Source: a virus. Taken from it: a DNA stretch of 64,000 nucleotides. Position 1 is the stretch's first letter, and each line of letters starts with the position of its first letter. The notes under the pieces were generated by a model that was given only the letters and a program-made list of their open reading frames with translations, made no database searches and had not been told where the DNA came from. The DNA is taken from the IMG/VR virus record IMGVR_UViG_3300018063_000001, positions 1 to 64,000 of that record; one strand, written 5' to 3'. The position numbers and the translations under genes were made by a program. Below, piece by piece: positions 62,516 to 62,784 of the stretch.

Positions 62516-62544
62516 TTGACAAATAGCGAGTCTTAGCTTATTAT
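62516..62544 (+). promoter_or_regulatory. Near-consensus sigma70 promoter
   Basis: TTGACA (62516-62521), a 17-nt spacer, TATTAT (62539-62544). Confidence 0.65.
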
Positions 62545-62716
62545 AGTGTCAATCAGCTACGTAGTGGAATGGCTACCTACTACGGTCAGAAGCAAAGGGA
62601 AACGAAGCGTGCAACAACTATATACCTGTCAAAAAATCCTGTTCTCTCCGCCTAACCCTGTTTTTGGAAAAAGGGTAAGCCACCCTAGTCACGCTTCGTT
62701 TCTGGGGTTGGGTTTG

Positions 62717-62738
62717 GAGAACAGGATTTTTTATTGGT
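62717..62738 (+). terminator. Terminator-like 3' arm plus U-tract (first)
   Basis: GAGAACAGGA, followed by TTTTTTATT, pairs with 62631-62646. Confidence 0.45.
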
Positions 62739-62748
62739 AATAAATAAA

Positions 62749-62784
62749 GGCAGCTACTTTTTAGGTAGACTGCCTTTTATCTTT
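62749..62784 (+). terminator. Intrinsic terminator (second)
   Basis: GGCAGCTAC / GTAGACTGCC stem with one bulge and a 7-nt loop, followed by TTTTATCTTT. Confidence 0.6.

Follow-up and report, generated by a model that had tools for sequence, protein, structure and literature searches.

What does a phage genome keep in a stretch that opens with a near-consensus promoter, holds no credible gene and can fold into two long helices whose arms interleave? The stretch in question, 62516-62784, lies near the end of the window, by which we mean the whole 64,000-nucleotide (nt) sequence analyzed, positions 1 to 64,000 of IMG/VR virus record IMGVR_UViG_3300018063_000001. A first-pass annotation made from the sequence alone had proposed a structured non-coding RNA here, either a small RNA in its own right, possibly partnered with an adjacent HNH/RHH cassette, or an attenuator leader of the gene starting at 62967. 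Comparative sequence analysis indicates that the structured RNA is a real, conserved and previously undescribed element with an unusual interleaved long-helix topology, because its design is kept in relatives with quite different sequences. As to what it does, the non-coding RNA encoded at 62516-62737 may be a leader of the attenuator type, working in cis, a reading to which we assign a probability of roughly 0.45.

A plus-strand RNA with interleaved helices

The element consists of the following parts, in which the 5' and 3' arms of helix A are called A5 and A3, and so on for the other helices. Homologous loci are designated L001, L005 and the like.

62516-62544, plus strand: promoter P(+), TTGACA-17-TATTAT, with a predicted start near A62551
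62551-62737, plus strand: predicted non-coding RNA of ~185 nt, from the start site to the U-tract plus ATTGG
62560-62584, plus strand: 5' hairpin, CGTAGTGG / CTACTACG
62599-62611, plus strand: A5, complementary to A3 at 13 of 13 positions
62631-62658, plus strand: B5, with an outer part (62631-62646) and an inner part (62650-62658)
62673-62685, plus strand: local hairpin H, GGGT/ACCC, just 5' of A3
62690-62702, plus strand: A3, within the loop closed by helix B
62705-62732, plus strand: B3, ending in T6 (62727-62732) and having the shape of an intrinsic terminator

The promoter, the 13-base pair (bp) helix, the 16-bp helix with its extension to ~28 bp, the interleaved order of their arms, the U-tract and a second terminator at 62749-62784 are all present as the first-pass annotation had placed them. 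P(+) is one of four matches of at least 11/12 to the sigma-70 consensus in the window, and a counterpart scoring 9-12/12 occupies the equivalent position in all eight relatives that have upstream sequence. Helix B has 28-nt arms that are 82% complementary, and its perfect outer 16-17 bp run into T6. Inverted repeats of at least 13 nt within 150 nt number four in the entire window, two of them being A and B. The arms follow the order A5-B5-A3-B3, with the last two-thirds of the ~185-nt RNA enclosed by helix B, and folding of a 240-nt region gives z = -4.5 against dinucleotide shuffles. The smaller hairpins noted earlier fared unevenly. The one at 62561-62584 is weakly supported because a similar hairpin and loop occur in L001 only; the one at 62673-62685 has similarly placed counterparts in L001, L010 and L011; and the one at 62790-62820 covaries, but it belongs to a leftward RNA on the other strand (see below).

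A -10-like hexamer overlaps the predicted start site: GTCAAT at 62548-62553 in the window, and CACAAT, AACAAT or TAACAT in L005, L006, L007, L009, L015, L020 and L063. In this it is like the sigma-dependent pause elements found in late promoters of lambdoid phages.

Homologous units are complete in L001, L005, L006, L007, L009, L011, L015, L020 and L063 and truncated at the 5' side in L010. The tally is ten full-length sequences plus one truncated, a very narrow distribution of ~11 contigs. They come from ENA and Logan assemblies, one NCBI assembly (through the protein collection) and the metagenome assembly ERZ1292644; the two ERZ1292644 contigs were reached by scanning metagenomes with a DNA pattern, and two more contigs through the neighboring helicase gene. 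The scan with the type 1 helix B pattern described below yielded 2 true matches, L015 and L020, among 22. A further contig, L060 (JAWVHG010001445.1 of NCBI assembly GCA_040384025.1, 45.6 kb), is identical to L005 throughout the RNA-cargo-terminator region.

Across the homologues the order 5'-(C5)-A5-B5-(D5 or hairpin H)-A3-(D3)-(C3)-B3-U-tract is kept, in two sequence types. Type 1 (L005, L015, L006, L007, L063, L020 and L009) has a helix B sequence in common, ACUCCUA...UAGGAGU, and adds a helix C of 7-9 bp outside A, whose 3' arm abuts B3 or overlaps it by 1-4 nt. It also has a short helix D that crosses A, and helix D or an alternative pairing, E or F, takes the place of hairpin H. Type 2 (the window, L001, L010 and L011) has other B sequences and hairpin H directly 5' of A3; its helix C is 6 bp long in L001, 4 bp in L011 and missing in the window. 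The junction sequences differ between the types, and few unpaired nucleotides are conserved across both. Nearly all nucleotides of the 3' half are used once, in one helix set, with junctions so tight that C3 abuts B3 and H abuts A3.

The helices are preserved while their sequences change. Helix A, 8-13 bp long, is fully paired in 10 of 10 full-length sequences, which use about eight unrelated sequences for it. A single compensatory change from A-T to T-A separates the A helices of L006 and L007, four consecutive pairs differ between L006 and L063, and L005 and L015 have identical B, C and D helices with entirely different A helices. Between cognate A arms the run of consecutive pairs averages 10.1 bases (8-13 bp), versus 4.4 for non-cognate arms. 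The length of helix B ranges from 21 to 30 bp.

Pairs were counted on arms extracted by hand and aligned in register with constant spacers; 98.9% of cells were paired, a percentage that is partly by construction because the arms were extracted and set in register in this way. Both sides vary in 30 of 30 tested pairs, none of 500 shuffles among sequences reached the observed pairing values, and a slid-register control left 30-43% paired. Ranking of stems without prior bias puts B first, with A (and C) also at the top, in every sequence. All helices together comprise 428 Watson-Crick pairs, 13 G.U pairs, no A.C pair and 6 other mismatches. Because G.U pairs occur and A.C pairs do not, the selected molecule is the plus-strand RNA and not the DNA or a minus-strand transcript. 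On this comparative evidence helices A, B and C are established, and pairings D, E, F and a further one, alt1, are plausible.

Directly 3' of B3 stands a U-tract in 11 of 11 homologues, as T6-T7 in nine of them, TTTTTATATT in L020 and TTTTCTTATT in L009. A G+C-containing stem followed immediately by a U-tract has the shape of an intrinsic (Rho-independent) terminator, and helix B is predicted to act as one. A simple scanner does not list it because the B loop is structured and 46-90 nt long, against a scanner limit of 3-8 nt.

A protein product of this stretch has next to no likelihood. A 64-amino acid (aa) frame with a GTG start is open in the window (62546-62740), which is what speaks for a real gene. 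It has no ribosome-binding site and no counterpart in any relative, and no open reading frame (ORF) is conserved across the homologues: their longest stop-free stretches, of 31-64 aa, lie in differing frames and are unrelated in sequence. Peptide similarity between relatives is confined to the few residues encoded by conserved B5-D5 bases, and substitutions in the stems are compensatory rather than codon-patterned.

Nor does the RNA belong to a described family. A permissive Rfam scan of 62300-63100 gave chance-level matches only (E >= 0.4), seven homologous loci gave no match, and Rfam 15, which covers C4 antisense RNA, HDV-like and other ribozymes, riboswitches and tmRNA, holds no family for the element. 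ARAGORN reported neither tRNA nor tmRNA. At the gathering threshold, the sole Rfam match in the window is a type II hammerhead ribozyme (Hammerhead_II) at 45938-45997 on the minus strand, within a leftward gene block (37.7 bits versus a gathering score of 37, E = 4.5e-4). The comparative data thus agree with the first-pass description of a promoter-driven, structured plus-strand RNA that ends in a terminator, with helices supported by covariation, no credible ORF and no known family.

The clade that carries the element appears to be small. No relatives of the 335-aa protein encoded downstream or of the HNH protein were found in IMG/VR, JGI metagenomes or GTDB genomes, which suggests that the element-bearing group is a small clade of uncultivated phages. 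The type 1 helix B pattern is not found in IMG/VR, and a pattern for the leftward RNA has chance matches only there. The window has no nucleotide similarity to GenBank phages or PLSDB plasmids, and its TerL-sized ORF has no phage match. An SNF2 helicase shares only 33-36% identity with proteins of EBPR, Pseudanabaena and Synechococcus phages, too little for host assignment.

Attenuator leader or stand-alone RNA

What lies downstream bears directly on function:

62733-62748, window: empty cargo slot, between the U-tract and the second terminator
62749-62784, both strands, window: bidirectional intrinsic terminator, with its stem at 62749-62774 and a T-tract to 62784
62967-63974, plus strand, window: downstream gene, encoding a 335-aa Cys4 protein with four invariant cysteines
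L001 9626-9766, L005 2449-2565, L006 5693-5926, L007 461-631, L015 2529-3411 and L063 2923-3063: cargo slots of relatives

Three arrangements are seen. In the simple one (L009, L010 and L011), the RNA and its U-tract are followed after ~30 nt by the start codon of the 62967 homologue. The RNA promoter is the only strong promoter found in L009; L010 and L011 are cut at the 5' side and do not cover this region. In the complex one (L001, L005, L006, L007, L015 and L063), an ORF starts 9-12 nt past the U-tract at the joint TTTTTTATTCC[C/A]ATG, and its only Shine-Dalgarno-like sequence is the AGGAG within B3 (AAGGG in L001). These cargo ORFs are mutually unrelated, encoding a 46-aa protein, a 37-aa zinc ribbon, a 77-aa protein, a 56-aa protein, and a 40-aa then a 258-aa protein (with a DUF5131 neighbor in L005). 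Beyond the cargo come a bidirectional terminator, a conserved structured region and then the 62967 homologue. The third is that of the window, which has the complex arrangement minus the cargo, with the terminator 12 nt past the U-tract. L063, with a type 1 RNA, and L001, with a type 2 RNA, carry the same 46-aa cargo and the same terminator; because different RNA types are paired with the same cargo and terminator, the 3' end of the RNA is a recombination joint.

In the attenuator reading, a constitutive-looking sigma-70 promoter would start the ~185-nt RNA, and A/C would pair during transcription, before B3 is made. This pairing would tie B5 into a closed loop and keep the 21-30 bp B helix from winding while polymerase holds the 3' end; with B unable to wind, transcription would read through into the downstream gene or genes. 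When A/C is blocked or opened, B would form, transcription would stop at the U-tract, the Shine-Dalgarno sequence would be buried and a stable ~185-nt RNA would be released. The element would in this way probably gate transcription into the downstream genes. In the window, read-through would matter only if it continued past the second terminator towards 62967.

Several observations support a leader. The promoter, the B helix with its U-tract and the long-range pairing of 5' sequences into the terminator loop are conserved, the RNA directly precedes the 62967 homologue as its 5' leader in L009, L010 and L011, and the AGGAG or AAGGG in B3 is placed before the cargo ORFs. Predicted folds differ with transcript length as well: truncated just short of B3, transcripts form A and/or C, and full-length sequences fold into B in every case. 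In type 1 the truncated folds contain further pairings that compete with A, D and B for nucleotides, among them F (the D5 region with the 3' half of A3) and alt1 (the inner end of B5 with D3). A excludes F, D excludes E, F or alt1, and C3 overlaps B3 by 1-4 nt, which matches the expectation for a switch. Of the two roles offered by the first-pass annotation, that of leader gains from the placement in L009-L011, and the RNA itself stands in either role.

Other observations weigh against attenuation. A/C and B have almost no nucleotides in common, and therefore do not form a classical terminator/antiterminator pair. The topological lock that would link them is our own reasoning, and it names no signal that would choose between read-through and termination. 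The scarcity of unpaired nucleotides conserved between the types argues against a metabolite-binding aptamer. Complex loci place a bidirectional terminator and a convergent promoter between the RNA and the 62967 homologue, and the window copy, although intact, is followed directly by a second strong terminator, with nothing between that and its U-tract. An intact RNA without cargo fits a stand-alone product at least as well.

Such a product is the subject of a second reading, which we consider rather unlikely, if by a smaller measure than those that follow: a terminated 185-nt molecule would work in trans, for instance by scaffolding proteins or by forming a homodimer that swaps helix A between two molecules, and the downstream ORFs would exploit leaky read-through. 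The RNA has its own near-consensus promoter and terminator, and the window copy has kept perfect 13-bp and 16-bp helices with no ORF and a second terminator 12 nt on. The nearly complete, single use of 3'-half nucleotides in one set of tightly joined helices also suits a finished molecule, and helices so long and interleaved are hard to form within a single chain. Other ornate bacterial RNAs form homo-oligomers (PMC12286853), which we count in favor of a stand-alone or dimeric RNA. However, no single-stranded seed or protein-binding motif is common to both sequence types, and the RNA has no specific complementarity to the neighboring leftward RNA. The element is always found directly 5' of same-strand genes, and in L009-L011 the gene that it leads is the 62967 homologue.

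A5 and A3, like C5 and C3, are complementary and covary, which from the sequences alone is compatible with pairing in cis or in trans. This allows a self-recognition scheme, which we regard as unlikely. Once finished, the 185-nt RNA would expose A3/C3 in the loop of its closed terminator helix and use them to pair in trans with A5/C5, either of nascent transcripts or of a second finished copy, thereby removing the A/C lock in cis and letting the terminator form. If this were true, the amount of its own leader RNA would tell the phage when to turn off the replication-module or cargo genes downstream, amounting to immunity or copy-number control in the manner of P4 CI but with an unrelated fold. 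Helix A, which varies freely, would then set the specificity and prevent cross-regulation between related phages, and a terminator regulated by topology, through helices without common nucleotides, would be a new principle of attenuation.

Processive antitermination is slightly less probable again. Here the nascent RNA would act like put, or a phage protein would load at a pause like that of lambda PR'-6S-tR', and polymerase would be carried through B and the second terminator into the operon of the 335-aa protein and a helicase. Downstream of a strong promoter there are indeed one or two terminators and, beyond them, genes that have no recognizable sigma-70 promoter of their own, and the -10-like CACAAT or AACAAT stands at the predicted start in most homologues. 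The pause element of lambda PR' is AACGAT at +1 to +6, and lambda 6S RNA is 194 nt long; the leader here, at ~185-190 nt, comes near it. On the other hand, put RNA has two hairpins and a fold unlike this one, none of the neighboring ORFs was recognized as encoding a Q-like or antiterminator protein, and a Q-type model leaves the covarying helices A and C unexplained. The element is also present in a single copy in the 64-kb window, where the other strong promoter, at 54292, has a short leader of an ordinary kind.

Neighbors of the element

On the other strand, a second short RNA and an insertion flank the element:

62874-62901, minus strand: promoter P(-), TTGACA-16-TACAAT, read from 62901 to 62874
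62745-62867, minus strand: predicted leftward RNA of ~120 nt, its ends inferred
62838-62861, minus strand: HP1, a hairpin of the leftward RNA
62790-62820, minus strand: HP2, in which 4 of 6 pairs covary
61616-62441, minus strand: RHH-HNH cassette, with HNH at 61616-62338 (Pfam HNH_4) and RHH at 62298-62441 (Pfam RHH_1)

The leftward RNA went unnoticed in the earlier annotation; with its own conserved promoter, it accounts for the 62790-62820 hairpin and for what the second terminator shows on the minus strand. Its layout is HP1, the motif GUCGGUCAG / GUCAGUCAG, HP2, CACUUGAA and the terminator. The motif, at 62820-62828, reads GUCGGUCAG in the window and is an invariant GUCAGUCAG in relatives; CACUUGAA is invariant too. 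The architecture is conserved and its stems covary in the window, L001, L005, L006, L007 and L063; the RNA is absent from L009-L011. P(-) scores 10-11/12 in L001, L005, L006 and L007, with a spacer of variable sequence, and was located by eye in L063 and in L008, which is cut at the 5' side. The second terminator is considered bidirectional because the minus strand also carries a T-rich tract: its stem covaries, and T-tracts are found on both strands, in the window, L001, L005, L006, L007 and L063. The leftward RNA ends at this shared terminator and does not overlap the plus-strand element, and complementarity between the two in RNAduplex is no better than that of shuffled sequences.

Downstream of the shared terminator, the 335-aa protein has no sequence match in Pfam, PHROG or the PDB, and its AlphaFold model, which is reasonably confident (predicted local distance difference test, pLDDT, 78), has no match among solved structures by Foldseek. 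It has a handful of homologues, 35-54% identical, in ENA and Logan assemblies. In relatives, the 3' end of its gene overlaps the start of a Rad3-like helicase gene, and a RecT-like gene lies upstream of the element. From these neighbors, the downstream genes form a putative replication/recombination module.

That setting could suit an element that acts as DNA or in replication, such as an origin, a primer RNA or a recombination site beside the helicase module. The inverted repeats would be cruciforms or protein-binding sites, or the transcript would prime DNA synthesis. The element heads the pair formed by the 335-aa and Rad3-like helicase genes, downstream of the RecT-like gene; the ends of the two predicted convergent transcripts lie within ~10 nt of one another in the window; and the flanks are recombination joints. 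But the 13 G.U and 0 A.C pairs point to selection on one RNA strand rather than duplex DNA, and the promoter and U-tract are conserved. Moreover, helix sequences that are not conserved are ill-suited to protein-binding sites, and the 335-aa protein was not recognizable as an initiator. We hold a DNA-level role to be highly improbable.

The RHH-HNH cassette, which has its own promoter (62476 to 62448), was proposed in the first-pass annotation as a possible partner of the RNA. This partnership did not survive comparison, as the cassette is absent from the other RNA-bearing loci, L001, L005, L006, L007, L015 and L063, and is flanked by an imperfect direct repeat of ~30 bp (61592-61621 and 62498-62525). 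Absence in relatives together with such a repeat, as insertions show, indicates an insertion that only the window carries. The repeat duplicates the sequence just 5' of, and including, the -35 element of P(+).

A motif, GTGGATAAAACGCTGAT, recurs 5' of the RNA promoter, at 61597-61614 and 62501-62518 in the window and at 5393-5410 in L006, 184-201 in L007, 2250-2268 in L015 and 2654-2671 in L063. A second, diverged copy, GTGGAT[G/A]TTT[C/T]GCT, is common, and a repeat ATGTCAG-N4-ATGTCAG adjoins the -35 element in L001 and L007. Operator or recombination sites are possible roles for the motif and the ATGTCAG repeats. Elsewhere in the window, near-consensus (11/12) sigma-70 promoters are found only at 54292-54321, heading a rightward early block with an ordinary leader of ~70 nt, and at 47320-47347, inside a minus-strand ORF, both promoters being on the plus strand.

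Two kilobases upstream, a gene at 59518-60372 (plus strand) encodes a 284-aa protein that matches phrog_4285, a "transposase" (E = 4e-33). Of the C-terminal domain of IS110, just the helix-hairpin-helix part is recognized (Pfam Transposase_20, below cut-off), and the DEDD nuclease domain was not detected. The gene is syntenic in L001, L005 and L015 and absent from L006. An IS110 bridge RNA was rejected as the identity of the element, given the partial match of this protein, its absence from L006 and an RNA without bridge-RNA architecture.

Comparison with known systems

The element, which would fall among phage leader or attenuator RNAs, adds a well-supported new structured RNA family from uncultivated phages, one that has no Rfam counterpart. 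Long interleaved helices without common nucleotides are unusual for a terminator-containing leader, and they raise the question of whether long-range pairing blocks the terminator topologically or acts between molecules. The locus is also modular, a promoter-leader-slot-terminator cassette in which unrelated small genes are swapped at one joint, which bears on the expression of phage morons.

Known RNAs with interleaved helices share part of this design. H-type pseudoknots and pseudoknotted riboswitch aptamers with terminator expression platforms likewise interleave their helices, and a terminator goes together with Shine-Dalgarno occlusion. The stems here, of 8-13 bp and 21-30 bp, are far longer than those of classical pseudoknots, and unlike pseudoknotted riboswitches the element has no conserved ligand-binding core and no Rfam riboswitch match. 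A metabolite riboswitch does not fit: no unpaired core is invariant across the types, and the genes downstream are unrelated cargo ORFs or the 335-aa gene. An HDV-like ribozyme, with a similar P1-P2-P3-P1'-P2' order, was likewise set aside, as helix lengths and linkers do not fit and Rfam gives no match.

Among phage leaders, lambda PR'-6S RNA-tR' and HK022 put offer a strong promoter, a non-coding leader of ~190 nt, an intrinsic terminator and an operon, and lambda PR' shares the -10-like element at the start site. In contrast to the element, the lambda leader has no conserved pseudoknotted structure, and no Q homologue was found here. HK022 put consists of two simple, adjacent stem-loops of ~70 nt in all, an architecture different from that of the element.

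The Enterococcus par RNA I/RNA II locus resembles the complex arrangement in that a plus-strand leader with a small ORF and a minus-strand RNA converge on a bidirectional terminator. However, cargo ORFs here are unrelated to one another, neither toxin-like nor hydrophobic, and missing from the window, and complementarity of the 5' regions was not found. A type I toxin-antitoxin system was rejected on these grounds and because the RNAduplex values are at the level of shuffled sequences.

The plasmid rep leaders of pT181 and pIP501/pAMbeta1, and ColE1 RNA I/RNA II, likewise set a structured, terminator-bearing leader before a gene of the replication module and use a small RNA of two or three hairpins from the opposite strand nearby. 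Their countertranscripts differ from the leftward RNA, which stops at the shared terminator without overlapping the leader, is absent in L009-L011 and has no specific complementarity to the plus-strand RNA. Nor is there a conserved antisense promoter in the leader. Minus-strand matches inside the element are weak and non-conserved (9/12 in L001 and 10/12 in L011 only), and the window, L005, L006, L007 and L009 have none, which does not fit attenuation by a countertranscript.

A further parallel is the immunity leader of the phage-plasmid P4, in which an untranslated leader behind a constitutive promoter heads the replication operon. Part of this sense transcript becomes a stable small RNA that pairs with complementary leader segments and thereby governs whether later transcripts terminate prematurely (summarized in PMC4825925). 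There are differences from P4 CI RNA and its seqA/seqC, and from the related P1 c4 and Salmonella IsrK. Each helix here has one pair of arms, whereas in P4 one seqB has two targets; the 3' end is predicted to come from an intrinsic terminator, whereas in P4 it comes from RNase P processing; and neither the window nor its relatives match the C4 fold (Rfam RF01695) or any other family. What the two have in common is complementary segments and a terminator within one sense leader, along with a helix that varies freely between relatives, as immunity specificity would. The position of the element at the head of a putative replication module likewise matches the sites at which P4 and the plasmids exert RNA control, here with an unrelated fold.

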